Shown here: positions 31,106 through 52,675 of the stretch, in pieces
Position numbering within the stretch: position 1 is the first letter of the stretch
Layout of the letters: each line of letters starts with the position of its first letter
Source of the DNA: Bacteroidales bacterium
Lineage (GTDB): Bacteria; Bacteroidota; Bacteroidia; Bacteroidales; UBA1715
Reading direction: 5' to 3'
Length of the DNA stretch: 64,000 nucleotides
NCBI GenBank assembly: GCA_031286165.1
Contig: JAITUU010000019.1
Span: forward strand, 6,730 to 70,729
Notes under the pieces: model-generated
Told to the model about the DNA's origin: nothing
What the model saw: only the letters and a program-made list of their open reading frames with translations
Database searches by the model: none
Position numbers and translations under genes: made by a program

Positions 31106-31185
31106 TCTATAATTATTTTCTAAACAATTTTTGCAGCAATTCTCAAAATAATACCTATATTTGCCCCACGAAAATAATACAACTT

Positions 31186-31579
31186 GGGGGTGACTGGAAT
31201 TGACGGGGAGTTGATTATTGATGTAAGCATGTCGGGCAATCAAGATTTTGACCCGTAAAAACATATCTTGAAACAATAACTGGCGAAAATACTTACGCTC
31301 TTGCTGCCTAATCGAATCATAGTAGATTAACGCTTTACGCTGTTCAAGGAACAGTGGCAGGACATTCCGCAAATGGCAAGTCCTTAGTCGTTTGAATCCG
31401 GAGTGCTGTAATTAAGGAATAGCGCACAATGTGTTTGGAGTTGTGCGTAAAATTTACAAACTAAGGAAAAAGTAGAGTGCCTGTTTTCGGCTTTTTCCCT
31501 ACAATCAACAACACGGCTACACATGTAGAAAGCATTGGTAATGCTTGTTCGGACCGGGGTTCGATTCCCCGCACCTCCA
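31186..31579 (+). ncRNA. ssrA: tmRNA; tag peptide GENTYALAA* at 31282-31311
   Basis: 5' GGGGGTG pairs with 3' CACCTCC-A; T-arm GGGGTTCGATTCCCC; tag ORF GGC GAA AAT ACT TAC GCT CTT GCT GCC TAA. Confidence 0.95.
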
Positions 31580-31580
31580 C
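31556..31580 (+). repeat. attL core (3' end of tmRNA)
   Basis: GGGGTTCGATTCCCCGCACCTCCAC, identical to 52651-52675. Confidence 0.92.
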
Positions 31581-31687
31581 AAACCGTACCCACAAAGGGT
31601 TTGCCGACTTTTTGTGGGAAATACGGGAACTGAATCGGAACTATTTTATTTTTTTTTCGCGCTGATGTTCATCAACGTAAAAAAAAA

Positions 31688-32878
31688 ATGCCCACACCTC
31701 AAAAAAATCAAGAGCGCGGCGCAATAGTGAGTGATTTGTACGGCTACACTCCTGCCGTACTCAAAGAATATGCCGACTATTGGTGCATAGAATACTATGT
31801 GAAGCATCCGGTAACGCACAAACTTACGCGCCGGAGAGAAAAAGTAAGCGCTTATAGAACGCGCTACGGCGTGCGCGAGGCACGGAATTTACTGCGAGTG
31901 GCAGTTAGCCGCTTGAATTTAAAATTGTCGCAAGGCTGGAATCCGTATTTTGTGCATGAAGACGGTCGCCTACTTGAACCGCTGCACATGGTTATACATA
32001 AATTTTTGGCGGAAAAAGAACGCGATTTACGCCCGAATACACTGCGTTCATACAAAAGCATGGTAGGCAAAGAACTGCGCGAATGGGCGCAAAAGAATTA
32101 TCCCACAATTACCGCTTCCACATTTACACGAAATATTGCCGTGCGCTATATGGATTTTATTCTGGCAAAAGGAGTGAGTAATACTTCATACAACAATACA
32201 AAAAAAATGATGAGTGCCTTTTTTAGTTGGTGCGTGGAAAAATGCTACGCAAAAGAAAATCCGTTTGCGCACATAAAACCAAAGAGAAAAGAACAAAAAC
32301 GCCGCATATTGGTTCCTGCCGAAGTACGAGAGCAAATTACCACTTATTTACAAGAAAACAAAAATATTGGTATGCAAATAGCCGTAAATTTGGTGTATCA
32401 AAGTCTTTTGCGCCCCAAAGAAATAAATGAAATTCAACTCAAACACATTCATTTGAGCGACAAATATATACTTGTGCCGGCTACGGTGGCAAAAAATCAC
32501 AACGAACGAAAAGCAACACTGAGCGATGCCACAATAGAACTACTGCAAAGATTGAAGATTGAAACATTACCGAAGGAATATTACTTACTCGGCGGCAATT
32601 CCAACCAACAAAGTTTACTGCCCCACGCTATACAATCGAATACGCAACGAATTTCTAAAAATTGGGATAGCATGCGAAAAAAACTAAATTTTCCCAAAGA
32701 AATGCAACTATACAGTTTGCGCGATACCGGCATAACCGATTTGCTCAAAAAAGGAATAGACCCACTTACGGTAATGCAGCACGCCGACCACCATTCGCTG
32801 GAAATGACCACAAAATACGCAAAACATATTGATACGGGATTGGTGCAGAAGATGAATAAAGTACTGCCGGATTTCTAA
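31688..32878 (+). CDS. Tyrosine recombinase/integrase
   Basis: Catalytic R (LLRPKEI), K (AKNH), YSLRDTG, ADHHS, TTKY; lies ~110 bp from attL. Confidence 0.92.
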   Translation: MPTPQKNQERGAIVSDLYGYTPAVLKEYADYWCIEYYVKHPVTHKLTRRREKVSAYRTRYGVREARNLLRVAVSRLNLKLSQGWNPYFVHEDGRLLEPLHMVIHKFLAEKERDLRPNTLRSYKSMVGKELREWAQKNYPTITASTFTRNIAVRYMDFILAKGVSNTSYNNTKKMMSAFFSWCVEKCYAKENPFAHIKPKRKEQKRRILVPAEVREQITTYLQENKNIGMQIAVNLVYQSLLRPKEINEIQLKHIHLSDKYILVPATVAKNHNERKATLSDATIELLQRLKIETLPKEYYLLGGNSNQQSLLPHAIQSNTQRISKNWDSMRKKLNFPKEMQLYSLRDTGITDLLKKGIDPLTVMQHADHHSLEMTTKYAKHIDTGLVQKMNKVLPDF

Positions 32879-32927
32879 AAAAAAACGGAATAGTTCTCGA
32901 AAAACTATTCCGGGTATTCATACTCTT

Positions 32928-33467
32928 TTACCATATTCTTATACTAACTCCGGCTCCTATAATAGATGTTGATGCAATACAAAAAAACATATATCGCTGA
33001 TTTTCAGCACTTGCAAAAACTGCGGGAGCGAACACACTCTGCGAGTATAATCCACCAGCACCAAATCCATATCGCCACCTGTGCAGCGGTTGTATTTCTT
33101 TGGTAATTATGGTAGTGCGCTTATAACTTTCGCCGTGCCACGAGCGCGAAATAATTTGATTGGCAAGCACGCTATCGGTAAGAAACACCACAAAACAACT
33201 ATCACGCAGCGTGTCGGCATACACGCGCAGTTGCTTGTATGTGGCTATTATTCGCTCCGTGTCGGTTGCGGTAGCAAGTGCAATGGTATCTACCATGCGC
33301 AGGGTTCTATACGCAGGTACATAACACGTATCGCGCACCGTAATAGTATCTATACGAGTTACTGTGCGTGTTTCTATGGTGTTTTTTGGTGTACACACAT
33401 GAAACACACATAACATACTCGCCACGCCAATAGCAAAAGCCCCAATGATTTTCAAAAATGTTTCCAT
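32928..33467 (-). CDS. Membrane-anchored beta-rich protein, possibly spanin-like lysis accessory protein
   Basis: N-terminal TM, TRIDTITVRDT-type repeats, C-terminal beta strands with GFGAGG; last gene of the late operon. Confidence 0.4.
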   Translation of the reverse strand: METFLKIIGAFAIGVASMLCVFHVCTPKNTIETRTVTRIDTITVRDTCYVPAYRTLRMVDTIALATATDTERIIATYKQLRVYADTLRDSCFVVFLTDSVLANQIISRSWHGESYKRTTIITKEIQPLHRWRYGFGAGGLYSQSVFAPAVFASAENQRYMFFCIASTSIIGAGVSIRIW

Positions 33468-33487
33468 CGTTTTTCGTTTTAGTGCAT

Positions 33488-33523
33488 AAAAAAACCGGTA
33501 CAGTTCGTATTGAATTATACCGG
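33488..33523 (-). terminator. Intrinsic terminator of cassette A (homolog at 50110-50144; inverted homolog at 52503-52537)
   Basis: Minus strand CCGGTATAATTC-AATAC-GAACTGTACCGG followed by T7. Confidence 0.75.
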
Positions 33524-33551
33524 TTCTGTGGGTGAGTGGAGAGAAAAAAAC

Positions 33552-33950
33552 TTATTCTTTGTAGTGTTTTGCAGCCCAATCAATAATCATTTTTCCTTGT
33601 TCTAAACTTGCTCTCACAATTTTATAATTGGGATTACCATCGTACCCCAACGCTTTGTGCAAACTTTCGTATGCTCCCAACAATGGAAAATTCATTTTAC
33701 GGTCTTTTTTTGCAACCGCATTTTGATAATCTTTAAAATCAGGTCTTTGCCCTTTTTTGAGATTTTTACGTACATCGGTGGCAGCATCAAGAGCCACAAG
33801 AACTCCGTTCCATGCTGTATTTCCTGCCATTTTCACATACTTAGGGTCGGTGTAATAATCACCGTCTTTTTCTGCTTTTTCGGAAAGTATCTGCTTTGCA
33901 TTTTCCAAATAGCGTTCCGCTTCTTTAATCGGGTGCTTTTGTATTGCCAT
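33552..33950 (-). CDS. DUF5618-family small helical protein (cargo gene with own promoter and terminator)
   Basis: AERYLENAKQIL...YYTDPKYVKMAGNTAWNGVLVALD...LHKALGYDG. Confidence 0.7.
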   Translation of the reverse strand: MAIQKHPIKEAERYLENAKQILSEKAEKDGDYYTDPKYVKMAGNTAWNGVLVALDAATDVRKNLKKGQRPDFKDYQNAVAKKDRKMNFPLLGAYESLHKALGYDGNPNYKIVRASLEQGKMIIDWAAKHYKE

Positions 33951-33975
33951 AGTCGTATGATTTTAAATTCCTTTG

Positions 33976-34045
33976 TGCAAATATACAACGAAAAACGTAA
34001 AAACAATATTTCTTTTTCGGTACAATTCAATATGTCAACGAACTC
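33976..34045 (-). promoter_or_regulatory. Cassette A promoter block, homologous to 50759-50829
   Basis: Minus strand TATATTTG (Bacteroidota -7 TAnnTTTG) at 33978-33985; ~70 bp near-identical to the cassette C flank. Confidence 0.7.
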
Positions 34046-34108
34046 TTTTTTTTGTAAACAACCTATTTTACTTCCGGAAACCACAGCGTATAATCGTGGG
34101 CGTGTCCA

Positions 34109-34450
34109 TTATTTTTTGAATTTTTTATACGCCACTACTCCGCCACCAACGATTGCAACTATTACAAGTACAATCCACCATGGAAAACAAAATTTCACAT
34201 TTTCGGCAGGAATTTCAAGTAAACTCGTAACCGGTTCGTTTTTCACACTATCGGTAATTTTTATAGATTGCTTTGTGGGGTCTATAATCAATACTTGTTT
34301 GTCGCCTTTGGTTTTCATATCGCCCACAATTTTTTCCCCTTCGGGAATACTTGCGGTAATTTCCTTACTCACGTATGCGCTTGCTTTGTACGTATCGAAC
34401 GCTACCGATGTGGCTTTGGTTACTTTATACGTTTTAAAAAGATTTTTCAT
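34109..34450 (-). CDS. Tail-anchored membrane protein, putative virion protein
   Basis: C-terminal TM PWWIVLVIVAIVGGGVVAY + KKFKK. Confidence 0.65.
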   Translation of the reverse strand: MKNLFKTYKVTKATSVAFDTYKASAYVSKEITASIPEGEKIVGDMKTKGDKQVLIIDPTKQSIKITDSVKNEPVTSLLEIPAENVKFCFPWWIVLVIVAIVGGGVVAYKKFKK

Positions 34451-34465
34451 AATTGATTGTTGTTT

Positions 34466-35191
34466 TTATTTATTGTAATACATTGATTTTTTGAATGTTT
34501 CATAATACAGTTTCGATATATATTTATCGTACTGTGCTCTTTTATTTGCTCCCTGCCAATGCAAAAAACTCGCAGGCTTCAATTCCGTAACTTCCAAACC
34601 ATAGAACTGTACAATTTGGCTCAAATTAAATTCCTCAACTCCCACCAAATAACCCATAGTTTCAGTGTTTCGCGGTGCTTTTTGGCAGTATGTGCGTGCA
34701 AAATCAAAAACTTCCTTCCATACAAAATAAGCACCTGTGCTGCCAAGTAAGCCGCTGCATATCAATTTTGCCGGAATGGTATCGGTTTTGGGTAATATGG
34801 CGCAGTCTTTAAACGCTTGCACGTAGGTATAATCGCGCTCCTGTTCGGTTATAATATGTCCGCTTTCGGGTATCCGGAACTCGGTGTGAAAATAGGTGTC
34901 GAAATCCACGTGTAAAAACGCTTCGCTTTGCAAACTATATACATAGAGTTTTCCAAAATTCCAATATGCCATATTGTGCGGAAACTGCATAAAATCCACC
35001 ACGTGTACCACATCGAAAGACACGCAGAAATTACTGCCACGAAATACATCGGCACAGTACGTATCGGTGTAGAGTTCTACCCGGTATCCGCAGTTTTTCA
35101 TACTTTGTACACTCAGTTCCGCCATGCGCAGCCACCATGCACAGGGTATGTTTTTTCCACCGTAGGAATTAAAGGAGTATATTACTTTCAT
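34466..35191 (-). CDS. DUF6734-like / GT-A-type glycosyltransferase-like protein
   Basis: WNFGKLYVYSLQSEAFLHVDFD (DxD), EEFNL, FLHWQG. Confidence 0.5.
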   Translation of the reverse strand: MKVIYSFNSYGGKNIPCAWWLRMAELSVQSMKNCGYRVELYTDTYCADVFRGSNFCVSFDVVHVVDFMQFPHNMAYWNFGKLYVYSLQSEAFLHVDFDTYFHTEFRIPESGHIITEQERDYTYVQAFKDCAILPKTDTIPAKLICSGLLGSTGAYFVWKEVFDFARTYCQKAPRNTETMGYLVGVEEFNLSQIVQFYGLEVTELKPASFLHWQGANKRAQYDKYISKLYYETFKKSMYYNK

Positions 35192-35206
35192 GCTTTACTT
35201 ATTTTA

Positions 35207-35503
35207 TTATTTGTATTTTATGCGGTGTTCGCAATTCATATTTTTGCAGGCTTTGCCTTTGAAAAATTGCACTTCTTTTTCAATCTCTTCTATGCGTATT
35301 TCCCACTTTTTGTCGCGTGCTATCATTTCGTTGCGCAGGCTTTCGAGGGCGTATTGATAGGTTTCGGCAATGGTTTTGTAGGTTTCGTTTATGGCACGCT
35401 CGGTTTCGGCTTTTTGCTTGCGCATACCAAAAAAGTAACTTACCACTCCGCTCGCCGCTGCCGTTGCGCCCAAAACTCCTATATGTACTTCTTCAAAAGT
35501 CAT
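35207..35503 (-). CDS. Holin-like protein (N-terminal TM + coiled coil)
   Basis: TM IGVLGATAAASGVVSYFF, coiled coil, C-terminal CxxxxC; late-operon position. Confidence 0.45.
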   Translation of the reverse strand: MTFEEVHIGVLGATAAASGVVSYFFGMRKQKAETERAINETYKTIAETYQYALESLRNEMIARDKKWEIRIEEIEKEVQFFKGKACKNMNCEHRIKYK

Positions 35504-35514
35504 AGTTTGATTTT

Positions 35515-36651
35515 TTAGAAAATTCGTATGTACGGCACGTCAAATTGTTGCACAGTGCCGGGAAATGATTGGGCGATATATGATTGTAAGTTCATTGTAC
35601 CGCCGCCGTATGCCGTTGGTGGTGCAATTTCACTACCGGCAATAACGGTTTGCAGTACATTCGTGGAATTGGGAATTTCGCTTTTTATGCGTTTTGCAGC
35701 CAAGTATCGTGCGCTTGTGTGGTCTATAAACAGTACGGCATAGTATTTTTGCTCGGCATACAATAAAACTTCGTCTTCAAAATCGGCAGTAATAGCGCAC
35801 GGTTCGCTACGAGAAAGATAACCAATAAGCGTTTTGCGAACAAAAGTCATGTTCCAATCGTAAATCGCCACACGAAAGTTACCGCCGGTGTGATTTGTTT
35901 GTACGCAAATTTGCGCTTGTTTCACGGTAGTATCTACGGCAGGAATTACCATAACACCCACAAAACCGGGATTAAAATTTTGTGCACCCTCGCACAGTGC
36001 AAAGGGAAAACTTTCGATAGGTGCGGAACTGCCATTGCTTATGCAAGTTTGCTCACCACCAAGCGAAATAGTTTTTATTTTGTTCCATGTACGCACTTTG
36101 ATTTTTGGCGTTTCACCGTCCATAAAGAGCGACATTGTTTCTTCCATGAGATTATCATCGTCCGTTTCTTTCGCACTGTGAATAAAAGATTGCCCGGTAA
36201 GAAAATAATGATTGTCTGCATTAATTCTCAAATTAATAGCATTGGCGGAACCCTGCTCAGAAAATGTTCCGTTGTAATTTTTATACAAACAATTTCGGTC
36301 GGTAAGGCGGAAAAATTGAAAAGGATACCCGTATGTTCTTTGTTCGTGATTATATACAATCAATTCGTTATTTCTCACTTGCAGTATATCAAAACCGTTT
36401 TCCCGCTTCAAATGCAATCCGTTGCGCGAAATAGAAAGCCATTTTTTATACTCATTTCCCCATTCGTTTGCCTCATATTTCGCAAATTCTTCGGGATTTT
36501 CGCGTTTCAATTCCCCCAATTCTACAATCACATGTCCACTGCCTTCTATGGCAAGCGGTGGTGTGCTATTGTTTTGCGCTGCGGTATCGCCGCCAACAAT
36601 ATCAAGCAAACCGGTTTGCGGATTAATCGTTGTTTCGTAATCAAAACTCAT
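35515..36651 (-). CDS. Putative spike/receptor-binding protein
   Basis: N-terminal INPQTGLLDIVG anchor-like motif, beta-rich body, C-terminal sandwich-like domain (NFRVAIYD, QKYYAVLF). Confidence 0.5.
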   Translation of the reverse strand: MSFDYETTINPQTGLLDIVGGDTAAQNNSTPPLAIEGSGHVIVELGELKRENPEEFAKYEANEWGNEYKKWLSISRNGLHLKRENGFDILQVRNNELIVYNHEQRTYGYPFQFFRLTDRNCLYKNYNGTFSEQGSANAINLRINADNHYFLTGQSFIHSAKETDDDNLMEETMSLFMDGETPKIKVRTWNKIKTISLGGEQTCISNGSSAPIESFPFALCEGAQNFNPGFVGVMVIPAVDTTVKQAQICVQTNHTGGNFRVAIYDWNMTFVRKTLIGYLSRSEPCAITADFEDEVLLYAEQKYYAVLFIDHTSARYLAAKRIKSEIPNSTNVLQTVIAGSEIAPPTAYGGGTMNLQSYIAQSFPGTVQQFDVPYIRIF

Positions 36652-36653
36652 GG

Positions 36654-36923
36654 CTATACGGTTTTTAGTGCATATTCATACTGTTCGCGTTGCGCCCAAT
36701 CGAAATCAAACATACCGAAGCCGACCCATTCAGTACGATATGTTACGCTGCGCGTATTGGAAAACACTATTTTTTTTACGCGCTCAATGCGGCACTTCGT
36801 AGCATCGGTATTTTTTGGAAATCCGAAATACCACGTAGTTCCACCTTCATTCACATTCACCACTTCATGTACCAATGGTGCTTTCATGCAATTTGTTATT
36901 AGTTCCGAAGAATATTCATTCAT
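36654..36923 (-). CDS. Small virion protein, putative spike adaptor
   Basis: WYFG...CRIERV...FDFDWAQREQYEY pattern, immediately upstream of the spike gene. Confidence 0.4.
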   Translation of the reverse strand: MNEYSSELITNCMKAPLVHEVVNVNEGGTTWYFGFPKNTDATKCRIERVKKIVFSNTRSVTYRTEWVGFGMFDFDWAQREQYEYALKTV

Positions 36924-36940
36924 AGTATGCAGGCTTTAAA

Positions 36941-37549
36941 TTATGCAAGTGTGTAGCCTTTTTGTGCTACCCATTTGGTAATATAGTTTTTAAAAGAACC
37001 TACGGTAATAGCACCGGTAGCATCTTGGAATATTGCATTTTGCTGTGCTACTTTACTGCCGGGCGCAGCTATTATGTAACTTTCGGCTTTGCCCATTGCT
37101 GCAGGGTAGAATACTGCCAAATACACATCGGTAAAGCAATTCATTTTACCTTTATAGGTATTCAGGTATTTATACACGTAATCCAACTGTTGCACATTGG
37201 TCATGGCGCATAGTGCATCGCAGGTGGTGCCAAGTGCATTTGCTGTTTTGGGCATAAATTGAATCAATCCGGTGGCTCCACCTGTGGGATTCACAGCGCG
37301 GTGGTTCAATCGGCTTTCCATAGCCATTACCGCCATAAGCCAATCACCTTTAATGCCCAAAGAACCACAAATAGAGTGCACTTTTTGCAAAAAAGCCTCT
37401 TTGTTTTCGGTAACGTAGTTTTCAAAAATCATGACTGTATGTTTTATTGTTTTGCGAAATACACACACGAGCAAAACCAATAACGCTGCGCATAGAGCAA
37501 CGGCGGTTATAAGCAGTTTCTTTTCGCCTATCGGTATTTTTAGGTTCAT
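36941..37549 (-). CDS. Lytic transglycosylase (SLT/lysozyme-like) with N-terminal TM
   Basis: WLMAVMAMES (catalytic Glu), GATGLIQFMPKTA, QLDYVYKY, YLAVFYP. Confidence 0.85.
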   Translation of the reverse strand: MNLKIPIGEKKLLITAVALCAALLVLLVCVFRKTIKHTVMIFENYVTENKEAFLQKVHSICGSLGIKGDWLMAVMAMESRLNHRAVNPTGGATGLIQFMPKTANALGTTCDALCAMTNVQQLDYVYKYLNTYKGKMNCFTDVYLAVFYPAAMGKAESYIIAAPGSKVAQQNAIFQDATGAITVGSFKNYITKWVAQKGYTLA

Positions 37550-37707
37550 TACTGTATCATTTTATTGCCCACAATGAGAATAACACCCACCAAAAGCAAG
37601 GCACCGGCAAGCATACAAATACTTGTTGTTTCTATTGCTACCGGTACTTCGGGCAGCCGACCGTCTTTGATGTCGGCTACTAATTTTGAGTTTAAAAGGT
37701 CATTCAT
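37549..37707 (-). CDS. 52-aa membrane protein missed by the ORF track
   Basis: MNDLLNSKLVADIKDGRLPEVPVAIETTSICMLAGALLLVGVILIVGNKMIQ*; fills the gap exactly, with TAATG coupling to the transglycosylase. Confidence 0.7.
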   Translation of the reverse strand: MNDLLNSKLVADIKDGRLPEVPVAIETTSICMLAGALLLVGVILIVGNKMIQ

Positions 37708-37708
37708 G

Positions 37709-38032
37709 TTATTTTACGTATTGGTCAAATTGTGCTTTGGTAAATTCTTTGGTATTGTAATATTTCACAAGTGCCGCTTCGGTAAGTGGTCCAAAATCAC
37801 CATCAACAACCAAACTCGCTCCTTTACTATTCAAGTGCGTTTGCAATTTTGACACGTTGTCGCTATTCATTACTCCGTTTTTAAGCGGAAAATCGTTGGC
37901 GGTGGAAGAAGAAGTTCCTATACCGGGCACTCTGCTTTGCCCTTGTGATTTTTTACCTTGCACTATAATAATTGCCGCTACTATGGCTGCAATTACTACT
38001 GCTATCAAAATATATTTCGTTGTTTTTGTCAT
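37709..38032 (-). CDS. Membrane-anchored peptidoglycan-binding domain protein
   Basis: N-terminal TM; VSKLQTHLN...LVVDGDFGPLTEAAL (PG_binding_1 motif). Confidence 0.8.
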   Translation of the reverse strand: MTKTTKYILIAVVIAAIVAAIIIVQGKKSQGQSRVPGIGTSSSTANDFPLKNGVMNSDNVSKLQTHLNSKGASLVVDGDFGPLTEAALVKYYNTKEFTKAQFDQYVK

Positions 38033-38044
38033 AATTGAAAGTTT

Positions 38045-38494
38045 TTAAAGTGATACGTTTATTGATTTTAAAATAAAATTGAGTTCTTGCATTTCGCCGC
38101 TACTGAGTTCGGTGGGGAGTAGTTCCGGTAGGTTGCCTTTGTAATTACCCACAAAGAATAAACCTGAATTGACTTCTTTAATGCCAAACACATCTACCAA
38201 GCGCAGCCAATCCGATTTTGTTTTCATTTTTCGGGCTACATTGTAAATTGCCTCTACATTAGTACCTATGCCGTCCATAGCGTTAAATATGGTGGCTGCC
38301 ATATCGCGGTATTCAACATCGGAATAACTGAGGTCATTTTTATTAATTTCGCTTTTGCGCTCGCTCTCACGATTTTTTGAGAGAAACCATTCCTGAATTT
38401 TTGGTTTCAGAAACGTATATCCTACGTATGCCACTATTACTACAATAGTTACGAGAATGATTTTTTGCAATCGAGGGTCTAAATTTTTTAACAT
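38045..38494 (-). CDS. Membrane-anchored protein with a single annexin-like repeat
   Basis: N-terminal TM; MAATIFNAMDGIGTNVEAIYNV...LPELLPTELSSGE resembles annexin AxxLxxAMKGxGTDE...LxSELSG. Confidence 0.55.
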   Translation of the reverse strand: MLKNLDPRLQKIILVTIVVIVAYVGYTFLKPKIQEWFLSKNRESERKSEINKNDLSYSDVEYRDMAATIFNAMDGIGTNVEAIYNVARKMKTKSDWLRLVDVFGIKEVNSGLFFVGNYKGNLPELLPTELSSGEMQELNFILKSINVSL

Positions 38495-38500
38495 AGTTTT

Positions 38501-38803
38501 TTATTTTTTCATTTTCATAAACACAACACCTCCGCCGATTGCGAGCACTACCACCGCAATAATTATTACAATCATGATAGAATTACTTCCTTCGCTCTTG
38601 TTGTCATTATTATTTCCTCCGGCTCCGGCTTTTGCAAGTAATGCCATTTGCTGTATTTGCATTTCGGCTATTCTTTCATTTGACGCTGCTACCGCTGCAT
38701 TTCCAGCTGCGGTTGTTTTTGCAGCCTTATTATTTGCTATGCCAGCCACTACTGTACTTCCTAAGTCGCCTACACATGATATTATTGGTCCTAAATCAAA
38801 CAT
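38501..38803 (-). CDS. Tail-anchored membrane protein, putative virion protein
   Basis: Amphipathic N-terminus, Ala-rich helix, C-terminal TM VVVLAIGGGVVF + MKMKK. Confidence 0.65.
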   Translation of the reverse strand: MFDLGPIISCVGDLGSTVVAGIANNKAAKTTAAGNAAVAASNERIAEMQIQQMALLAKAGAGGNNNDNKSEGSNSIMIVIIIAVVVLAIGGGVVFMKMKK

Positions 38804-38808
38804 AATTC

Positions 38809-39540
38809 TTAATTTTTAAATTTGTTGTACATATACACTCCTCCAATTCCTATTGCAATAACCGCAACTACTATCACTATCGGCAGCATACTGCTTTGTT
38901 GTTGCGTTTTGCTATTGGCTGCAGCATCTCTTAGTGCTGCTTCCTCTTCCAATTTTTTGATATATTGTAGTTCGGCTTTGGTTTGAAGCACACTACTTTC
39001 TACCTCACGTTCGCTTTGTTTCGCCGCTTCTTTTTCTGCGGAGGCAAGTGCTTTGGCTGTTTTGTTTTGCTTTATGCCTTTTACAAGACTGCCGGTAATA
39101 GAAACCGCCGCAGAAACGCCTGCTGTTATCAGTCCTATAAATTCGTGAATATTCGCATTATTCGGAATTTTCGTATCAAACACCTGACGCAGCACCGATG
39201 TATTATCGTTATCGGTAGAAAGTGCCGTTTGTAGCAATTCTTCGCCGCGTGCTATTTGTTGTTTGGTAGTAAATGGCAGACTTTTATAATATGCTTTCAA
39301 AATATCTACCGTATCATCGCCAAGTTCTAAACATCGCCAAAACGCCCATCTATCCGCAAGCATTTCGTTATCTTCGGCAGCGTTCAAATGTCCCAATTCA
39401 TGAGCAATAACAAATTTTTTGCCCATTTCACTGAGTTTATTCCACGCCGCCGGATTTATGTACAGTACGGCAGTATTCAAATCAACCGCTGCCGGTCCGT
39501 TAATCCACGAAACTTCTTGTGTGGAAGAAAATAATTTCAT
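38809..39540 (-). CDS. Zincin-like (HEXXH) metallopeptidase fused to coiled coil and C-terminal TM; start re-called at MKLFSS
   Basis: LYIN...FVIAHELGH...EMLADRWA; C-terminal TM IAIGIGGVYMY + NKFKN. Confidence 0.7.
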   Translation of the reverse strand: MKLFSSTQEVSWINGPAAVDLNTAVLYINPAAWNKLSEMGKKFVIAHELGHLNAAEDNEMLADRWAFWRCLELGDDTVDILKAYYKSLPFTTKQQIARGEELLQTALSTDNDNTSVLRQVFDTKIPNNANIHEFIGLITAGVSAAVSITGSLVKGIKQNKTAKALASAEKEAAKQSEREVESSVLQTKAELQYIKKLEEEAALRDAAANSKTQQQSSMLPIVIVVAVIAIGIGGVYMYNKFKN

Positions 39541-39545
39541 AGTGG

Positions 39546-39716
39546 TTATGATTGTTTCATTACTTGTGATGCTTTTTTCAAGCATATACTCATCTGCACT
39601 TTATGTACTTTTTTTGCCGGAATGGTTTTGTAACCAGCTTTGTTTTGAATGTCCTGAGCAAGTTTCATGAGGCGTTTTGCTCTATTTTGCGCCGCTTTTT
39701 GTTTTAAAGATGCCAT
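39546..39716 (-). CDS. 56-aa basic protein missed by the ORF track, putative DNA-binding core protein
   Basis: MASLKQKAAQNRAKRLMKLAQDIQNKAGYKTIPAKKVHKVQMSICLKKASQVMKQS*; fits the operon spacing. Confidence 0.65.
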   Translation of the reverse strand: MASLKQKAAQNRAKRLMKLAQDIQNKAGYKTIPAKKVHKVQMSICLKKASQVMKQS

Positions 39717-39739
39717 AGTTATACCTTTTTATATTTCAG

Positions 39740-39952
39740 TTAAAACGTTTCGGAAACCCACCAATCGGCACAAACTTGTGTGAGCCATGTGAATTTTCTA
39801 ACTTTTTTGAGTGTTTTTTTCGATTGCAATGCTGCTAATTTTGCAAACAGTTGTTTTTCAGAGTAAGGACCAAATTTGAGATTATTTGCCTCCCCTATTT
39901 CTTTGAGTACAGCCAAAAACTCTTTTTTTCTAATTGATTTCGTTGTTGCCAT
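39740..39952 (-). CDS. 70-aa Lys-rich hypothetical protein
   Basis: ORF in operon orientation; strongly basic. Confidence 0.55.
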   Translation of the reverse strand: MATTKSIRKKEFLAVLKEIGEANNLKFGPYSEKQLFAKLAALQSKKTLKKVRKFTWLTQVCADWWVSETF

Positions 39953-39965
39953 AATTCATGTTATA

Positions 39966-40430
39966 TTATTTTCTCTTTACCGAAGAACTTTTCAGTATCG
40001 TTGGTGCTGCGGTTAGGGCAGCATGATACACACCGTTTTCTTTATTATCCCATAGAAAGTTAGAGTAATTTTTATCTACTGTGAAGGCATATACCGAAGA
40101 ACCGTTTATATAAGAAAGGTGTGTTTGATATATCGCAGTTAATACAGCATCTTCATAACTTGTGTAGCCCCAATTATACCACGGACCGTCCGGATTGAGA
40201 TAGGATATTCGTTTCTTTACTTCTCTCAAACACGATTCGCGCTGTGCCAGCGTCCACAAGCCGTTTGTTAAATCCCACTTACTTGCTACCGAAGCGGTTG
40301 CGGAATTAGAACCCGTACCTGTGGAGTCTTTATTTTCACTTGTTTCGGCAGCATTGCTTTTACCGGCAAATACAAACACCAGCACTATTACCAGCACTAC
40401 TGCAATTCCTATTATTATTTTTTTACTCAT
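39966..40430 (-). CDS. Signal-anchored membrane protein, putative virion protein; start re-called at MSKKIII
   Basis: N-terminal TM IIIGIAVVLVIVLVFVF, Ser/Thr linker, aromatic domain. Confidence 0.65.
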   Translation of the reverse strand: MSKKIIIGIAVVLVIVLVFVFAGKSNAAETSENKDSTGTGSNSATASVASKWDLTNGLWTLAQRESCLREVKKRISYLNPDGPWYNWGYTSYEDAVLTAIYQTHLSYINGSSVYAFTVDKNYSNFLWDNKENGVYHAALTAAPTILKSSSVKRK

Positions 40431-40434
40431 AATT

Positions 40435-40875
40435 TTACTTTTTACAAATTCGTATAATAGCAAACGTTGTGATAGAAACTATGACAATGGCTACAAAACC
40501 CAAAATGATAGTTTTCTTCTGTTTTGCCTCTTTTTCATCAGCCTCGGCGGCTGCTTGGCGTGCTTTTTCCTCCACTTCTTTTTTTGCTTCGGGAGTTATG
40601 CCGTTTTCTATGCCAAACAAATCGAAGGCAGTATCTACGATTGAACGCAAATCTTCTCCACTAAACGCAGCAATCTTTGGTGCCGACTGTATCAACATTC
40701 TGTTCAATTCGTTGCTGAACTGTTTGCCGTGTTTCACGTATGCGCGGCGCAATTCGTTTTCAAGGTTCACATCATTGGGGCGCAACCCATAGCGATTGAA
40801 AAAGAAAAGCCAACTCTTCGGGTCGGCTTTTCTCATTTCGTCAATCAACACATCTATTGATGCCGTTTTTTTCAT
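40435..40875 (-). CDS. Tail-anchored membrane protein, putative virion protein
   Basis: Helical N-domain, AAFSG, C-terminal TM IILGFVAIVIVSITTFAII + RICKK. Confidence 0.65.
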   Translation of the reverse strand: MKKTASIDVLIDEMRKADPKSWLFFFNRYGLRPNDVNLENELRRAYVKHGKQFSNELNRMLIQSAPKIAAFSGEDLRSIVDTAFDLFGIENGITPEAKKEVEEKARQAAAEADEKEAKQKKTIILGFVAIVIVSITTFAIIRICKK

Positions 40876-40881
40876 AGTTAC

Positions 40882-41550
40882 TTAAATTAAGCCGGTTGCT
40901 ATTGCATTTTCCAACTGTGTTACTTGGCTCATGCGGTCATCGAAGTAAAATACCAAACTCACTTTTGCGCCCGCTTGCACTTTGTACAAAAACACACGGT
41001 CTTTGCCCAATACAAGGGTATCGTTTGAAAAATCTACCGATACACGAGTTTGATCGTTTTCCGTTTCCGATTTTGATGCGCTTGGTGTGCGTGTAATAAT
41101 TTGTTTTGGGCGGTGTGGACCAAGTTCGTACACTTGAAGAGCCTCATCGAGTTGGTCGGTTTTTTTACACATCACTCGCACACCTTTAATACGGCATGGA
41201 GTTTCGATAAAGGTTTTGCGAATATCAATCACATTGGCACCTTGTCCGCTTGCTGTTACGGCAGTAGAAGTAGAGGTTGCTGAAATAAATATACCATCGT
41301 CCACAATGCCGGTAACTTTTTCGGAAAAGTCCTTCATTTGCGATGCTTTTTCGTAGTATCCTTCACTGATTGCCACGAATTGGTCCACCGGTGCTTTTCC
41401 ATCGGATGCCGGAGCGGCATTATCTATTACTAAGGTTACGCTTTCTCCCGAAAAAGGATTTACATAACCATTTTGATTGCCGGCATAACCCTTAATTCCA
41501 AGTTGTCGGCGTGCTCGTTGTTGCGGAGTTTCATTTTCTAAAAATTCCAT
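40882..41550 (-). CDS. Candidate major capsid protein (beta-sandwich/jelly-roll type)
   Basis: Only sizeable soluble all-beta-looking protein at the head of the structural operon (SVTLVIDN, RIKGVRV, LQVYEL, VSVDF, VFLYKV, VSLVFYF); no HK97 motifs. Confidence 0.55.
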   Translation of the reverse strand: MEFLENETPQQRARRQLGIKGYAGNQNGYVNPFSGESVTLVIDNAAPASDGKAPVDQFVAISEGYYEKASQMKDFSEKVTGIVDDGIFISATSTSTAVTASGQGANVIDIRKTFIETPCRIKGVRVMCKKTDQLDEALQVYELGPHRPKQIITRTPSASKSETENDQTRVSVDFSNDTLVLGKDRVFLYKVQAGAKVSLVFYFDDRMSQVTQLENAIATGLI

Positions 41551-41582
41551 TACTATATATTTTTTTTTAAGTTATTACTTGA

Positions 41583-41765
41583 TTATTTTCCGGATAGTTT
41601 GTTGGCAAGCGTAAAAGGATTACCGGTAAAATTCGCTACGGTGCCGTTATTTTCGGCTGTTTTTTTCGCTACGGCATTCACCAATGCCATATTCCACACT
41701 GCGGAACCTACAATAAATACCACTAAAATAATAAGTAGTATGTTTGCTGTTTTGATAGAATTCAT
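41583..41765 (-). CDS. 60-aa signal-anchored membrane protein, first gene of the structural operon
   Basis: TM ILLIILVVFIVGSAVW; contains ANFTG. Confidence 0.65.
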   Translation of the reverse strand: MNSIKTANILLIILVVFIVGSAVWNMALVNAVAKKTAENNGTVANFTGNPFTLANKLSGK

Positions 41766-41827
41766 GTTTATTTGTTTTAACTGTTTACATTATTGAGTGC
41801 AAATATTATAACAAGTGATTGTGCCGA

Positions 41828-41888
41828 TACGGACTTTATCGGACTTTATCGGACTTTCAAGCACTTTATCGTGCTTTATCGGACTTTT
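41828..41888. repeat. 10-bp-period direct repeats (GGACTTTATC) upstream of the structural operon
   Basis: ggactttatc ggactttatc ggactttcaa gcactttatc gtgctttatc ggacttttt. Confidence 0.8.
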
Positions 41889-41951
41889 TGTGCATAAAAA
41901 AAGCCACCGTATGGGTGGCTCTTACTGCAAACTAAAAAACGGAACAAAGAT

Positions 41952-42233
41952 TTATTTTTTGAATAAGTCGGAATGAGTTCCGGTATGTGTAAGAACAATG
42001 TTTATTCGATTTTTTCCTGCGTTCCACACAAGCAACCAATCGGGTTGTAAATGTGCTTCCCACAAACCATTGTATTTTCCTTTCAATACGTGTGTTTTAT
42101 ATCTATCTACCGGCAGCGTGCCTGTGGCTTCCAATATTTTAACAGCAACATTTAACAATTCCATATTAAGACCTCGTTTTTGGGCTAATTTGGCTTGTTT
42201 TTTAAATTCGTGGGTGTAAGATATTGTGTACAT
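41952..42233 (-). CDS. yafQ: YafQ-family (RelE fold) mRNA interferase toxin
   Basis: FKKQAKL...HVLKGKYNGLWEAHLQPDWLLVW...TGTHSDLF. Confidence 0.9.
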   Translation of the reverse strand: MYTISYTHEFKKQAKLAQKRGLNMELLNVAVKILEATGTLPVDRYKTHVLKGKYNGLWEAHLQPDWLLVWNAGKNRINIVLTHTGTHSDLFKK

Positions 42234-42237
42234 ATAA

Positions 42238-42453
42238 CTAACTTAAAATTTCCTCTATCGGATTCTTTGTGTTTTTGAGAATATGTATTTTCCCTTCTCG
42301 TAAATCCTGCATTGATTTTTCAAAAGTAGCAGTTGTTTTCGCCGTTCTTTTGGGTAATGTTACACTCCATTTGAATTTTTTTGCCAATTCCGTAAGCAAA
42401 TCAAATTCATTCATGGGAATAGTAATAGTTACTTGTTGTACTGTTGTTGCCAT
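42238..42453 (-). CDS. Cognate antitoxin 1 (71 aa; start MATTVQQ)
   Basis: Directly upstream of the toxin; own TATATTTG -7 box; C-terminal FEKSMQDLREGKI. Confidence 0.8.
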   Translation of the reverse strand: MATTVQQVTITIPMNEFDLLTELAKKFKWSVTLPKRTAKTTATFEKSMQDLREGKIHILKNTKNPIEEILS

Positions 42454-42593
42454 AGCCGTAATAATTAGTTTCTTGTGCAAATATAGAAAATTATTTTTCA
42501 AAATCATTCTCTGTAATGCCATTCGGACTTTTTGTGCATAAAAAAAGCCACCGTATGGGTGGCTCTTACTGCAAACTAAAAAACGGAACACAG

Positions 42594-42872
42594 TTATTTA
42601 TCTAAATAATGTCCTTTCACGCTCAGAATATCAACTGTAATAGCATTATTGTTGATTGAATATACCATACGATTTTTACTATCTATTCTGCGCGACCAAT
42701 ATCCGGAAAGTTCGTGTTTTAATCTTTCCGGGTTCCCCGAACCTGTTTCGGGGTGTTCTTCGAGTTCATCAAGCAATTTTTTGATTTTTTTCAATCGTGG
42801 TTTATCTCCACTTTTCACAAGAAAATCTAATTGTTCTTCAGCCTTTTCCGATAAAAATATGGTGTATTTCAT
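42594..42872 (-). CDS. yoeB: Txe/YoeB-family toxin
   Basis: KIKKLLDELEEHPETGSGNPERLKHELSGYWSRRIDSKNRMVY...VKGHY. Confidence 0.92.
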   Translation of the reverse strand: MKYTIFLSEKAEEQLDFLVKSGDKPRLKKIKKLLDELEEHPETGSGNPERLKHELSGYWSRRIDSKNRMVYSINNNAITVDILSVKGHYLDK

Positions 42873-43093
42873 AATTCTCCGAAGTATTTATTTTTTACAG
42901 ACGAAGTTAATTGACGTTTGGGAGATTTTTCGGCATCTTGAATCATTTTCACAAATGACGCACTGTATTTTGTCGTTTGCGTTGTGCTTTTGGGTAATGT
43001 TACACTCCATTTGAATTTTTTTGCCAATTCCGTAAGCAAATCAAATTCATTCATGGGAATAGTAAGGGTTACTTGTTGTACTGTTGTTGCCAT
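42869..43093 (-). CDS. Cognate antitoxin 2 (74 aa; start MATTVQQ)
   Basis: First 35 aa match antitoxin 1 at 34 positions; different C-terminus (YSASFVKMIQDAEK); overlaps toxin start by 4 nt. Confidence 0.8.
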   Translation of the reverse strand: MATTVQQVTLTIPMNEFDLLTELAKKFKWSVTLPKSTTQTTKYSASFVKMIQDAEKSPKRQLTSSVKNKYFGEL

Positions 43094-43130
43094 AGCCGTA
43101 ATAATTAGTTTCTTGTGCAAATATAGAAAA

Positions 43131-43331
43131 TTATTTTTCAAAATCAGCCTCTGTAATGCCATAATGTGCGCACACGTGTTCGAGTGCTGCACCGTATAAG
43201 CGTTTGTGTGTCATACGATAGCCAAATTCCTGCACGCGGGTAAAGAGCGGCGGCGTGTGCAGTTCCTTTGTAAATACTTCGGTGCTTATGCCTATGGCGT
43301 AGGCAATTTCGTTTTTGTAGCGTGTTTTCAT
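43131..43331 (-). CDS. Small HTH-like protein (DUF4248-like), candidate regulator
   Basis: KNEIAYAIGISTEVF...GYRMTHKRL...VCAHYG pattern. Confidence 0.5.
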   Translation of the reverse strand: MKTRYKNEIAYAIGISTEVFTKELHTPPLFTRVQEFGYRMTHKRLYGAALEHVCAHYGITEADFEK

Positions 43332-43332
43332 G

Positions 43333-43890
43333 TTATTCTGTTGTAATGTGGATTTTTGCGTAGGGATTTTTGAGTGCTTGTGTGCGCACTGTATTCACTG
43401 CGGTTTCTAATTTTTGAAGTATGTGTGGCGGTATCCATGCTTTGCGCAGGCGCGGTTCGTCCATAGTATTGAACAATACATAATCGGTAATGTAAGTAAA
43501 TAATGCCGGTGGAATATCGCGGAAGCCATGAGCAACAAACACAATATCGAGCATCATCTTTCGGCTCACTATAATAATTTTTTTCAATGCCGAATGGTCG
43601 AAATTGCTACCAATGTAAGCGCGTGGGTCGTCGAGAACCAACACGGCATCGTGCAGGTGTTTATAAATTGCCACAAAATCGGTTTCATTTTCATATACCC
43701 GGCAGCGCACGCCGGTATAATCAAAATCTTTTCGCGCCCGGCACTTACATTCGGGAAGTTTATCCGCCCAATCGTCCCACGTGGGCACAACAAAAAGTGC
43801 ACGTTTGCCTATACAAGCAACTGCTTCGGCAAAGGTAGATTTTCCGCAACCACGCACGCCCAGCAATAGCATAATTTTAGTTTTTCGCAT
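43333..43890 (-). CDS. FtsK/HerA-superfamily (A32/P9-like) ATPase, putative genome packaging motor; start re-called at MRKTKI
   Basis: Walker A GVRGCGKST, Walker B VLVLDD, Arg-finger region SRKMMLDIVFVAH; 185 aa with no nuclease domain. Confidence 0.75.
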   Translation of the reverse strand: MRKTKIMLLLGVRGCGKSTFAEAVACIGKRALFVVPTWDDWADKLPECKCRARKDFDYTGVRCRVYENETDFVAIYKHLHDAVLVLDDPRAYIGSNFDHSALKKIIIVSRKMMLDIVFVAHGFRDIPPALFTYITDYVLFNTMDEPRLRKAWIPPHILQKLETAVNTVRTQALKNPYAKIHITTE

Positions 43891-44440: not shown

Positions 44441-44442
44441 GA

Positions 44443-44736
44443 TTACAAAATAGATAGTAAGAATTGTTTAACAATATCGGCTGCTGGTTGCACATTTTCC
44501 ATGCGCAATATGGTTTTGTTTTCATCTAAAAACACCGTGCCTACATACATGGTATCTTTTACCGGAAACGCCATAAACGATACTGTATTTTTGCTTTCGG
44601 CTTGCATGGTTTTTATGCGTTCCAGCGCAAATGCTTCGAGAGAAGGTAGAAATTGCGGAAGAATTTCGCTTTCCAATAATTTTTTAATTTGCTTTTTTCC
44701 TGCACTTGATTTCAGGAGTGTTTCTAATCCAAACAT
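44443..44736 (-). CDS. Hypothetical protein
   Basis: Tightly spaced ORF in operon orientation. Confidence 0.65.
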   Translation of the reverse strand: MFGLETLLKSSAGKKQIKKLLESEILPQFLPSLEAFALERIKTMQAESKNTVSFMAFPVKDTMYVGTVFLDENKTILRMENVQPAADIVKQFLLSIL

Positions 44737-44737
44737 A

Positions 44738-50061: not shown

Positions 50062-50109
50062 GTTGTTTTAGTTATTAGTGGTTAGTTATTAATTTTCGTT
50101 TTTGTACAT

Positions 50110-50144
50110 AAAAAACCGGTACAGTTCGTATTGAATTGTACCGG
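50110..50144 (-). terminator. Intrinsic terminator of cassette C
   Basis: Minus strand CCGGTACAATTC-AATAC-GAACTGTACCGG-T6. Confidence 0.75.
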
Positions 50145-50176
50145 GTAGAAGGCTGAGGAAATAAAAAAGTAAGTTA

Positions 50177-50551
50177 TTATTTCTTAAATAAGTCGGAGTG
50201 GGTTCCTAATTGAAACAAGATAAGAGTTAGTTCTTCATTATTCACTTGCCACACCAAAAGCCAATCGGGTTTTACGTGGCATTCCCATGTTTCAGCACCA
50301 TAGCCATGTAATTGGTGGGGAACATATTTAGAATCTAATCGAGCACCTTTGGCAATAGTATGAATTACTCTTTCAAGTAATCGTAAATCCAAATTGCGCT
50401 TGTATGATAATGATAATTGTTTCTTAAACTCATTGGTTGCCAATATTTGGAATATTGCATCGGAATAATCGGCAATCGTATCAAAAAACCCTCTTACCGT
50501 CATTCTTTTTTCTGATATAGTGCCGTGCTGCAACTTTCTCATTTTCTCCAA
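50177..50551 (-). CDS. yafQ: YafQ-family toxin with N-terminal extension (start uncertain)
   Basis: FKKQL...HQLHG...WECHVKPDWLLVW...LGTHSDLF. Confidence 0.85.
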   Translation of the reverse strand: MEKMRKLQHGTISEKRMTVRGFFDTIADYSDAIFQILATNEFKKQLSLSYKRNLDLRLLERVIHTIAKGARLDSKYVPHQLHGYGAETWECHVKPDWLLVWQVNNEELTLILFQLGTHSDLFKK

Positions 50552-50733
50552 TTTTTTGGCGTATGAAGCACTGAAACACGACCATATTTTACATCGTCAA
50601 ACGCTTTTTCCATGCCTGTTTTTACAGGGGTGTTTATTGTCCACTTTAATTTTTTTGCTAATTCCGAAATCAGATTAAAATCTTTCATGGGAATATTAAC
50701 GGTAACGTAAGGTTGTTCGATTGTTGTTGCCAT
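50539..50733 (-). CDS. Cognate antitoxin 3 (64 aa; start MATTIEQ)
   Basis: VTVNIPMKDFNLISELAKKLKW is homologous to antitoxins 1 and 2; MEKAFDDVKYGRV tail. Confidence 0.8.
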   Translation of the reverse strand: MATTIEQPYVTVNIPMKDFNLISELAKKLKWTINTPVKTGMEKAFDDVKYGRVSVLHTPKNWRK

Positions 50734-50758
50734 AGCCGTAAATTTTAAAATTTCTTTC

Positions 50759-50829
50759 TGCAAATATACAACGAAAACAGAAAAAACAATATTTCCTTTT
50801 TCGGTACAATTCAATATGTCAATGAACTC
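50759..50829 (-). promoter_or_regulatory. Cassette C promoter block, homologous to 33976-34045
   Basis: TATATTTG -7 box (50761-68) plus CGGTACAATTCAATA (50802-16). Confidence 0.7.
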
Positions 50830-50878
50830 GATTCCGGTGGGGTACGCACTCTTGCGCACTGATTGTAATGTTCAATTC

Positions 50879-52650: not shown

Positions 52651-52675
52651 GGGGTTCGATTCCCCGCACCTCCAC
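52651..52675 (+). repeat. attR core (duplicated tmRNA 3' end)
   Basis: Identical to 31556-31580. Confidence 0.92.

Follow-up and report, generated by a model that had tools for sequence, protein, structure and literature searches.

A recurrent promoter-hairpin flank pair around unrelated toxin and defence genes in integrated elements of termite-gut Bacteroidales

The stretch of DNA considered here, hereafter the window, comprises 64,000 nucleotides of a Bacteroidales genome of the UBA1715 lineage (assembly GCA_031286165.1, contig JAITUU010000019.1, positions 6,730 to 70,729 of the forward strand) and contains an element of about 21.1 kb, integrated in the transfer-messenger RNA (tmRNA) gene ssrA, in which a DUF5618 gene and an unrelated putative toxin-antitoxin (TA) pair are enclosed by the same non-coding flanks. 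These two units (c1 and c2) belong to a family of about 20 cassettes with at least nine unrelated cargo families, all of them from one bacterial family of termite-gut Bacteroidales, in which a motif named here the X-site and a predicted promoter precede the cargo and a hairpin followed by a T-run succeeds it. With moderate confidence, the flanks are considered the ends of mobile expression cassettes, comparable to morons and to the promoter-early stem-loops (PeSLs) of phages, whose shared regulatory ends serve as recombination substrates.

The two flank pairs of the window and their anatomy

The initial annotation of the window had described a block of about 70 bp with similar leaders upstream of both cargos and another of about 50 bp downstream, and both blocks are real and longer than had been claimed. 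When aligned base by base, the upstream homology covers 33945-34045 and 50728-50829 on the minus strand (about 89% identity) and is unbroken from GAGTTC(G/A)TTGACATATTGAATTGTACCG through the promoter and the leader to ATG-GCA, about 101 nt altogether, the similar leaders being a part of this continuous match. Downstream, the homology leads from the stop codon to the next gene (33551-33471 versus 50176-50093, about 80 nt). All non-coding DNA around c1 matches that around c2, including 29-nt hairpins that are identical save for one base, and the open reading frames (ORFs) alone differ. Short flank blocks compared with the rest of the genome give BLASTN E values of 1e-13 to 1e-17, and a 15-nt core (CGGTACAATTCAATA) occurs five times in the window at 0-1 mismatch, a match count reached by none of 100 shuffles. 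The cargos themselves are unrelated, as had been stated (BLASTP of DUF5618, E = 1.6 against the toxin and E = 3.8 against the antitoxin). The features concerned are the following:

34018..34045, minus strand: X-site of c1 (GAGTTCGTTGACATATTGAATTGTACCG), the sharp 5' edge of the conserved flank
33951..34017, minus strand: A-run, Bacteroides-type promoter and leader of c1, predicted by motif match; the leader ends in ACGACT before ATG-GCA
33978-33985, minus strand: predicted -7 box of c1 (TATATTTG), with TTG at about -33; motif match to the consensus only
33552..33950, minus strand: c1 cargo, DUF5618, 132 aa (Pfam 4e-34)
33471..33551, minus strand: 3' block of c1, with pyrimidine-rich spacer, hairpin CCGGTATAATTCAATACGAACTGTACCGG (33495-33523), T7 and tail ATGCACTAAAACGAAAA
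50802..50829, minus strand: X-site of c2
50734..50801, minus strand: promoter (-7 box at 50761-50768) and leader of c2, predicted by motif match
50539..50733, minus strand: c2 antitoxin candidate, 64 aa, without a Pfam match; 4-nt overlap with the toxin gene
50177..50542, minus strand: c2 toxin of the YafQ family, 121 aa from ATG (Pfam YafQ_toxin 5.7e-25)
50093..50176, minus strand: 3' block of c2, with spacer, hairpin CCGGTACAATTCAATACGAACTGTACCGG (50116-50144), T6 and tail ATGTACAAAAACGAAAA
52502..52537, plus strand: third hairpin copy (52502-52529) and T8, without X-site or promoter partner

The last of these, which was not among the features of the initial annotation, ends the plus-strand operon of an XRE regulator about 110 nt before the right end of the element (attR).

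From its outer edge inwards, the 5' block is composed of a 28-nt X-site, an A-run, a TTG, a spacer of 18-19 nt, a -7 box and a leader of 25-30 nt. An alignment of 11 such blocks shows no variation in the -7 box (TAtaTTTG), which is preceded by a TTG at a distance of 18-19 nt. The -7 consensus of Bacteroides promoters is TAnnTTTG (as cited in PMC4747536), and the 5' block appears to carry its own predicted promoter of the Bacteroides -33/-7 type for the cargo. Unrelated first genes open with ATG-GCA-AC(A/T), encoding Met-Ala-Thr, in c2 (50725-50733), c6, L2, G002C22, G021 and G019, and so does a 92-aa gene without flanks at the c1 position of a related element (G002:C39). Either the 5' homology extends into the first codons or these starts reflect a common preference in translation initiation.

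The hairpin of the 3' block has the form CCGGTACA-ATTCAATACGAAC-TGTACCGG (N13 between the arms), a folding energy of -15 to -17.5 kcal/mol and, behind it, T6-T8 with a short tail (ATGYACAAAAC...). In 19 copies, taken from several genomes, standard pairs fill 96% of the pair cells, compared with 87% in shuffles and at most 47% in slid controls. Changes on both sides are found in four of the 11 pairs, and the observed covariation was reached by none of 500 shuffles. Because pairing is kept through compensatory changes across the copies, the hairpin is maintained as a structure, and hairpin and T-run together are predicted to form a factor-independent terminator of the cassette's own downstream of the cargo.

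The two flanks are moreover related to each other. Read in reverse complement, the 15 nt that close the X-site (TATTGAATTGTACCG) reproduce the 5' arm plus loop of the hairpin, perfectly so in c2 and in the cassettes c3 and c4 (listed below) and with one mismatch in c1; since the 3' part of the X-site is an inverted copy of hairpin arm and loop, each cassette has inverted-repeat-like ends. The segment GAAYTGTACCG is common to the X-site and the hairpin 3' arm. In addition, X-site arm and hairpin arm covary by lineage, with GTACCG in genus g1 and TTTACCG in a second genus (g5) and some G002 copies.

One explanation of this complementarity, compatible with movement of the cassettes by homologous recombination as well as by a dedicated recombinase and considered rather doubtful here, is that the X-site functions at the RNA level as a conditional antiterminator. 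Transcripts from the cassette promoter, which lack the X-site, would stop at the hairpin, whereas in transcripts reading through from upstream the X-site would pair with the 5' arm and loop; a cassette within an operon would then not be polar on downstream genes, because this pairing would prevent formation of the terminator. The duplex of the complementary 15-mers has an energy of -17.7 to -19.6 kcal/mol, and when the read-through RNA is folded at equilibrium, the long-range duplex beats the local hairpin in c1, c2, c5, L1 and L2 (mean pair probability 0.83-0.96). Furthermore, c1, c2, c3, c4 and c7 are co-oriented with the genes on both sides, and the covariation of the two arms between genera points in the same direction. 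However, the local terminator is favoured in c3, c4, L3c, L3d and all four g5 cassettes, where the probability of the long-range duplex is at most 0.01, and the complementarity falls to 12 nt or less in g5 and L3c. The X-site is also kept in c5 and c6, which have no co-oriented operon upstream, and its left half (GAGTTCATTGACA) is conserved equally despite having no pairing partner, whilst equilibrium folding of translated RNAs of 600-1000 nt is a weak predictor.

A role of the X-site as operator of the XRE regulator of the element was considered as well and rejected, the promoter region of that regulator holding a different palindrome. This near-palindrome (AGAATTAAATTC), unrelated to the X-site, is present three times at 51372-51438, in the divergent region that precedes the XRE gene (51474-51770), and its copies are probably the operators of the regulator.

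Distribution of the flanks and their cargo

Three contigs of this genome carry the flank pair, as do two congeners, a second genus and two metagenome contigs. Exact-pattern scans of public collections returned four further contigs, of which two come from metagenome-assembled genomes (MAGs) of termite guts and two from JGI metagenomes, one of the latter kind (L003, 5 kb) being an array of four units; the same scans did not find hairpin or X-site in the viral contigs of IMG/VR. Exact patterns being too strict, two covariance models, one for the hairpin and one for the 5' block, were needed for diverged copies, and these revealed strong flank copies in two congeneric genomes and, in four genomes of g5, paired diverged 5' and 3' matches enclosing antitoxin-PIN and antitoxin-YoeB pairs. 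No flank matches were obtained in 250 other genomes of the order (184 genera). The remaining cassettes of this genome are as follows:

c3, C19 9781-10694: cargo Fic
c4, C19 10750-11306: cargo HicB-like and HicA
c5, C46 46982-47838: cargo small antitoxin and GNAT toxin
c6, C46 about 50150-51029: cargo antitoxin and PIN; its 5' site is a complete inverted hairpin
c7, C46 49358-50125: cargo HigB and HigA; variant flanks

Restriction of the flanks to one element and these two genes, which had been named as the finding that would speak against a cassette system, is therefore not what is observed. The same distribution bears on the simplest account, an ordinary local duplication of promoter and terminator within one element, with no cassette system behind it. 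Only two copies had been seen in the window at first, which fits that account; it is refuted by the distribution of the flanks, and hardly credible, now that about 20 cassettes with at least nine cargo families are known from three elements of this genome, from other genomes and from a second genus.

With regard to content, the catalogue comprises DUF5618, YafQ, a SoFic-like Fic protein, HicA, GNAT, two PIN_3 types, HigB with a helix-turn-helix (HTH) partner, and YoeB, so that almost all cargos are type II TA modules, accompanied by single genes (DUF5618 and the SoFic-like Fic). Pfam assigns Fic, HicA, GNAT, PIN_3 (two types), HigB with HTH_3 and YoeB to cassette cargos, and the Fic protein matches the SoFic/PDC-S04 defence models. 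The cargo of c2, a small gene overlapping a downstream YafQ toxin gene by 4 nt, is a putative type II TA module. Both the type of cargo and the distribution of the flanks thus support the proposal of the initial annotation that defence and addiction genes are carried in a cassette system; the exchange of these genes by recombination between the flanks, the second half of that proposal, has indirect support, as described below.

The function of DUF5618 is less evident. PADLOC gives no match for it or for the YafQ pair. The c1 protein is all-helical and a homologue of an uncharacterised structure (PDB 3mfn, 1.5e-23). Its single-sequence model has a predicted local distance difference test score (pLDDT) of 69, and the remote structural matches that follow 3mfn are 2q00 and HepT toxins (template modelling score, TM, 0.55-0.61; E > 0.04). 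The model thereby bears a weak resemblance to the HEPN fold, and no Rx4-6H motif is visible in the DUF5618 sequence. It is the company that the gene keeps, and not its sequence, that hints at a defence or toxin-like role.

Two further DUF5618 copies deserve mention. On contig C26, a paralog (610-1092; 71% amino acid identity to c1) has kept the promoter part of the flank and lacks X-site and hairpin; it is flanked by GTTGAGAGT-type repeats, and behind it come five tandem GTCAATTAG units. At L001 (G001:C11, 4722-5122), the gene is broken near codon 100 and is probably a pseudogene, since the homology to c1 continues in another frame.

Movement of the cassettes and its possible mechanisms

In 12 cassettes the conserved sequence begins within about 2 nt of CCGAGTTC, and the DNA further upstream is unrelated. 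DUF5618 cassettes (73-74% protein identity) occupy three different contexts: near the integrase end and beside late genes in the element of the window, downstream of a primase of 72% nucleotide identity in G001, and inside the L003 array. As flanks accompany cargo to different backbone positions, the cassettes are mobile rather than fixed slots, and of the reusable expression slot that had been proposed it is the reuse of the flanks that stands, not the fixed position. Likewise, L2 and L3d share the same cargo as well as flanks that are 96% identical, which argues that cassettes travel as units.

A comparison with a related element lacking the cassette, also called for initially, is provided by G002:C39, a collinear relative that likewise resides in ssrA (window 31148-45236 corresponds to C39 12374-26004). 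Flank copies are absent from the whole of that element; nevertheless, because the unrelated 92-aa gene mentioned above occupies the c1 position, G002:C39 does not represent a clean empty site. Elsewhere, comparable module boundaries are found occupied by different cassettes: the one upstream of the replication genes has c2 in the window and the pair c3 and c4 in C19, and the one beside the XRE operon has c2 in the window and, in C46, c5, c7 and c6.

The flanks show concerted evolution. Promoter and leader show 87% identity between c1 and c2, two cassettes of the same element with unrelated cargo, versus 70% between c1 and L1 or L3c, which enclose orthologous DUF5618 genes. A promoter variant close to the -7 box (TTTCGTTGTATATTTG) is shared by five of the seven promoter blocks of this genome, G000 (c1-c4 and c6; c5 and c7 differ) and also accompanies the DUF5618 paralog on C26. 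The grouping of the flank variants follows the element and not the cargo. Since the flanks of c1 are nearer to those of c2 than to those of cassettes with orthologous cargo, either flanks and cargo have been reassorted or flanks have been homogenised within the element, and either process requires recombination inside the flanks. This indirectly supports the notion that such recombination may exchange cargo.

A further structure of relevance is a hybrid solo site (C46:10930-10975; CCGATTTCATTGACATATTGAAATGTACCG-TTTTTTTT-ATGCAG), in which the X-site passes at TGTACCG straight into T-run and tail. Its neighbours are a primase-like gene and a gene of 67 aa, and it could be an empty or excised cassette site; given that X-site and hairpin 3' arm share GAAYTGTACCG, such a site is the expected product of cassette deletion by recombination in that segment. 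Additional solo-site candidates in G002:C4 and G016:C13 were rejected as chance matches inside coding sequence. Cassette c7 is bracketed not by an X-site/hairpin pair but by a perfect 25-nt direct repeat (ACTGAATTGTACTGAGAGAAAAAAT; C46:49374-49398 and 50099-50123), which contains the GAAYTGTACCG segment.

Given that every cassette carries the same ends of about 100 nt and about 80 nt, the flanks would double as portable homology. According to the reading favoured here, the plan of a cassette would be X-site, A-run, Bacteroides-type promoter, short leader, ATG(GCA), cargo, pyrimidine-rich spacer, hairpin terminator and T-run. The promoter would express the cargo independently of the operons of the host element, and hairpin and T-run would end the cassette transcript, both activities being deduced from the sequence of the flanks. 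Recombination between the flanks of different cassettes would swap cargo and homogenise flanks within an element, and it would also delete cassettes, leaving a hybrid solo site, and build tandem arrays. Cargo would thus presumably be moved by homologous recombination and not by a dedicated recombinase.

The sharp boundaries are open to other explanations. In one of them, regarded as very unlikely, the cassettes are non-autonomous transposons, either miniature inverted-repeat transposable elements (MITEs) or mobile insertion cassettes, with imperfect terminal inverted repeats (AGTTCR...TATTGAATTGTACCG at both ends) and a transposase supplied in trans. The ends do resemble inverted repeats, the boundaries are sharp, and the unit is small and present in many contexts. 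Against this, no copy shows a target-site duplication, no candidate transposase lies near any cassette, and the right repeat is itself palindromic, from which the inverted-repeat appearance may follow. The sole Y1 (IS200/IS605-type) match in the genome is weak, partial and located on another contig, and a Y1 transposase acting at the hairpin ends was accordingly rejected as the driver. The match itself (PF01797, C41:25891-26073, 31 bits) falls inside a 1254-aa open frame, an unusual context for this domain. An inversion switch flipping whole cassettes between the inverted 15-mers was likewise rejected, since all of the roughly 20 cassettes keep the promoter beside the X-site and the stop codon beside the hairpin, with no sign of flipping.

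A more substantial alternative, possible although improbable, is a dedicated site-specific cassette system resembling integron cassettes or the pdif (XerC/D) modules of Acinetobacter plasmids. The hairpin would then be a recombinase core site with inverted arms of 11-12 nt around an asymmetric spacer of 5-7 nt (CCGGTACAATT-CAATACG-AACTGTACCGG), the X-site a hybrid site sharing the right arm GAAYTGTACCG, and the integrase of the element or the host Xer proteins would excise circles and insert them at solo sites (X-arm, right arm and T-run). Several observations are in keeping with such a system: 5' ends are sharp and identical across unrelated contexts, the hairpin has a palindromic arm-spacer-arm geometry with a conserved loop or spacer, the right arm of the X-site covaries with the hairpin arm across lineages, and the solo site matches exactly the predicted excision product, the crossover falling within or beside TGTACCG. 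Further such observations are the complete inverted hairpin that forms the 5' site of c6 and the direct repeats of c7, which contain the right arm, and pdif modules also hold TA pairs between short inverted recombinase sites (PMC6449649). On the other hand, no recombinase accompanies the cassettes beyond the integrase of each element, whose att core is unrelated, the genome lacks an integron integrase above the cut-off, and, outside cassettes, no dif-like copy of the site turned up in the chromosome; a circle-junction sequence was not observed either. Arrays are irregular, with inter-cassette spacers of 65 to 131 nt and with L3b devoid of a hairpin, and recombination at the outer sites alone would not yield promoter variants that group by element instead of cargo. 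A composite version, in which an undescribed system of Bacteroidota mobile elements, an expression-ready equivalent of integron or pdif modules, combines a tyrosine recombinase acting on hairpin and X-site, circular intermediates, and a hairpin doubling as terminator and as target of an X-site-paired conditional antiterminator, is unlikely. If it is true that a dedicated recombinase acts on the hairpin, a new cassette-capture system would be at hand.

Several points also weigh against homologous recombination between mobile expression cassettes as the explanation. The homology arms are short (28-100 nt) and marginal for RecA-type recombination, no recombinase of the Red/RecT type was identified in the element, and exchange between existing flanks leaves the first arrival of a cassette at a new position, with the same sharp ends, unexplained. 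The hairpin loop is conserved as much as the stem, which a plain terminator would not need, and the solo site is a single case that may be an independent terminator variant. To these may be added that all cassette sequences come from MAGs or metagenome contigs, and that the host element may be a tailless provirus or an integrative element of another kind.

When considered from a comparative point of view, the cassettes belong, by the defining features tested, to none of the known systems that they recall, and no description of this flank family was found. The closest likeness is with PeSLs of T4-type phages (Arbiol et al. 2010, PMC2839356; Comeau et al. 2014, PMC4122927), motifs that flank variable ORFs and mediate their insertion, deletion and replacement (PMC2839356). 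Both are conserved composites of promoter and stem-loop, repeated in a genome and flanking variable non-essential ORFs, and both have been proposed to provide autonomous expression, insulation and homology for gene insertion, deletion or replacement. There is no sequence relationship, however: the promoter is of the Bacteroides -33/-7 type here and an early σ70-like one in PeSLs, the stem-loop lies here at the 3' end with a degenerate inverted copy at the 5' end whereas a PeSL is one compact intergenic motif, and integrated Bacteroidales elements with TA and defence cargo stand against lytic myoviruses with ORFans. The relation is analogous, not homologous. Morons of temperate phages (in the Juhala/Hendrix definition, as discussed in PMC2839356) similarly consist of one gene or two, inserted between backbone genes together with a promoter and a terminator, and frequently carry TA or defence functions. 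A moron is absent between the same two genes in a related element, to which the occupied c1 position of G002:C39 offers an imperfect parallel; in contrast to morons, one flank pair here serves at least nine cargo families.

Modules bounded by pdif sites (PMC6449649, PMC13141974) are comparable in being units of 0.5-3 kb that include TA pairs, are delimited by short imperfect palindromes in inverse orientation and occur in different backbone contexts, as the DUF5618 cassette does in three. In contrast, pdif sites measure 28 bp (11-6-11) and resemble the chromosomal dif, whereas the present site reads 11-7-11 or 12-5-12, is trailed by a terminator-like T-run, is paired with a conserved promoter and has no known Xer dependence. 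No chromosomal counterpart of the hairpin was found either, all strong matches of the hairpin model in the genome being at cassette or element ends. Integron cassettes, especially the TA cassettes of chromosomal integrons, share hairpin-forming boundary sites, an arrangement in tandem arrays and TA cargo that has promoters of its own. For the integron integrase model TIGR02249, the best match in the genome reaches 112 bits against a cut-off of 265, the matches being Xer-like recombinases on other contigs, and neither of the attC boxes R''/L''-L'/R' (RYYYAAC...GTTRRRY) is present in the 29-nt hairpin CCGGTACAATTCAATACGAACTGTACCGG. Unlike in integrons, a promoter is part of every cassette, and the cassettes are spread over several mobile elements instead of one array behind attI/Pc. 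Finally, the rAID-1 arrays of gut Bacteroidales (Ross et al., bioRxiv 10.1101/471110) also combine small accessory genes with repetitive intergenic sequences, described as "reminiscent of integrons" (bioRxiv 10.1101/471110); these arrays, however, lie beside a conserved XerD-family recombinase and contain orphan immunity genes of the type VI secretion system, whereas the cassettes here carry TA or defence genes, mostly single or paired, without an adjacent dedicated recombinase.

The reuse of one standard promoter-terminator frame for at least nine unrelated toxin and defence families would amount to natural plug-and-play expression cassettes, and this in Bacteroidota, whose promoters and mobile elements differ from those of the systems in which morons, PeSLs, integrons and pdif were defined. 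The flank pair (about 100 nt plus about 80 nt) constitutes a testable portable unit of expression and insulation for Bacteroidales. It may also serve as a search key for new defence and TA genes without protein homology, such as DUF5618 and several unannotated antitoxins, and as a substrate for learning how accessory genes shuffle between integrated elements in gut communities.

The host element and other repeats

The element that houses both cassettes of the window is inserted in ssrA (tmRNA 31186-31580; an Rfam scan of 31000-53000 returned the tmRNA only) and is bounded by a 25-bp direct repeat corresponding to the tmRNA 3' end (GGGGTTCGATTCCCCGCACCTCCAC):

31556..31580, plus strand: attL, the left end of the element, tmRNA 3' end
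31688..32878, plus strand: tyrosine integrase of the element
52651..52675, plus strand: attR, the second copy of GGGGTTCGATTCCCCGCACCTCCAC

It also encodes a 927-aa primase, an SLT lysozyme-like protein, the XRE regulator, many small membrane proteins and a small ATPase with a weak A32-type match, for which relatives among viral contigs were not found. Lysozyme and primase are the only PHROGs matches, and no capsid, terminase or conjugation hallmarks were found among the element proteins; the single-sequence model of a 222-aa capsid candidate (pLDDT 40) was unusable.

Other repeated structures are found in the same element. Two tandem antitoxin/YafQ pairs (41879-43192, with a 640-bp period) have another promoter and another hairpin (GCCACCCATACGGTGGC) and carry the same T7-ATGCACAAAAA tail as the flank-bearing cassettes. 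The whole of this 1.2-kb array is missing in the collinear G002:C39 (window 41894-43076 corresponds to C39 23505-23520), and just upstream of it, at 41823-41887, lie five tandem copies of a 10-nt unit (ACTTTATCGG). In addition, the ends of three late-operon genes resemble each other, each encoding a Gly-rich transmembrane tail with a basic terminus (..GGGVVAYKKFKK and variants; 34109-34144, 38501-38536 and 38809-38844), a likeness that is visible at the DNA level too.

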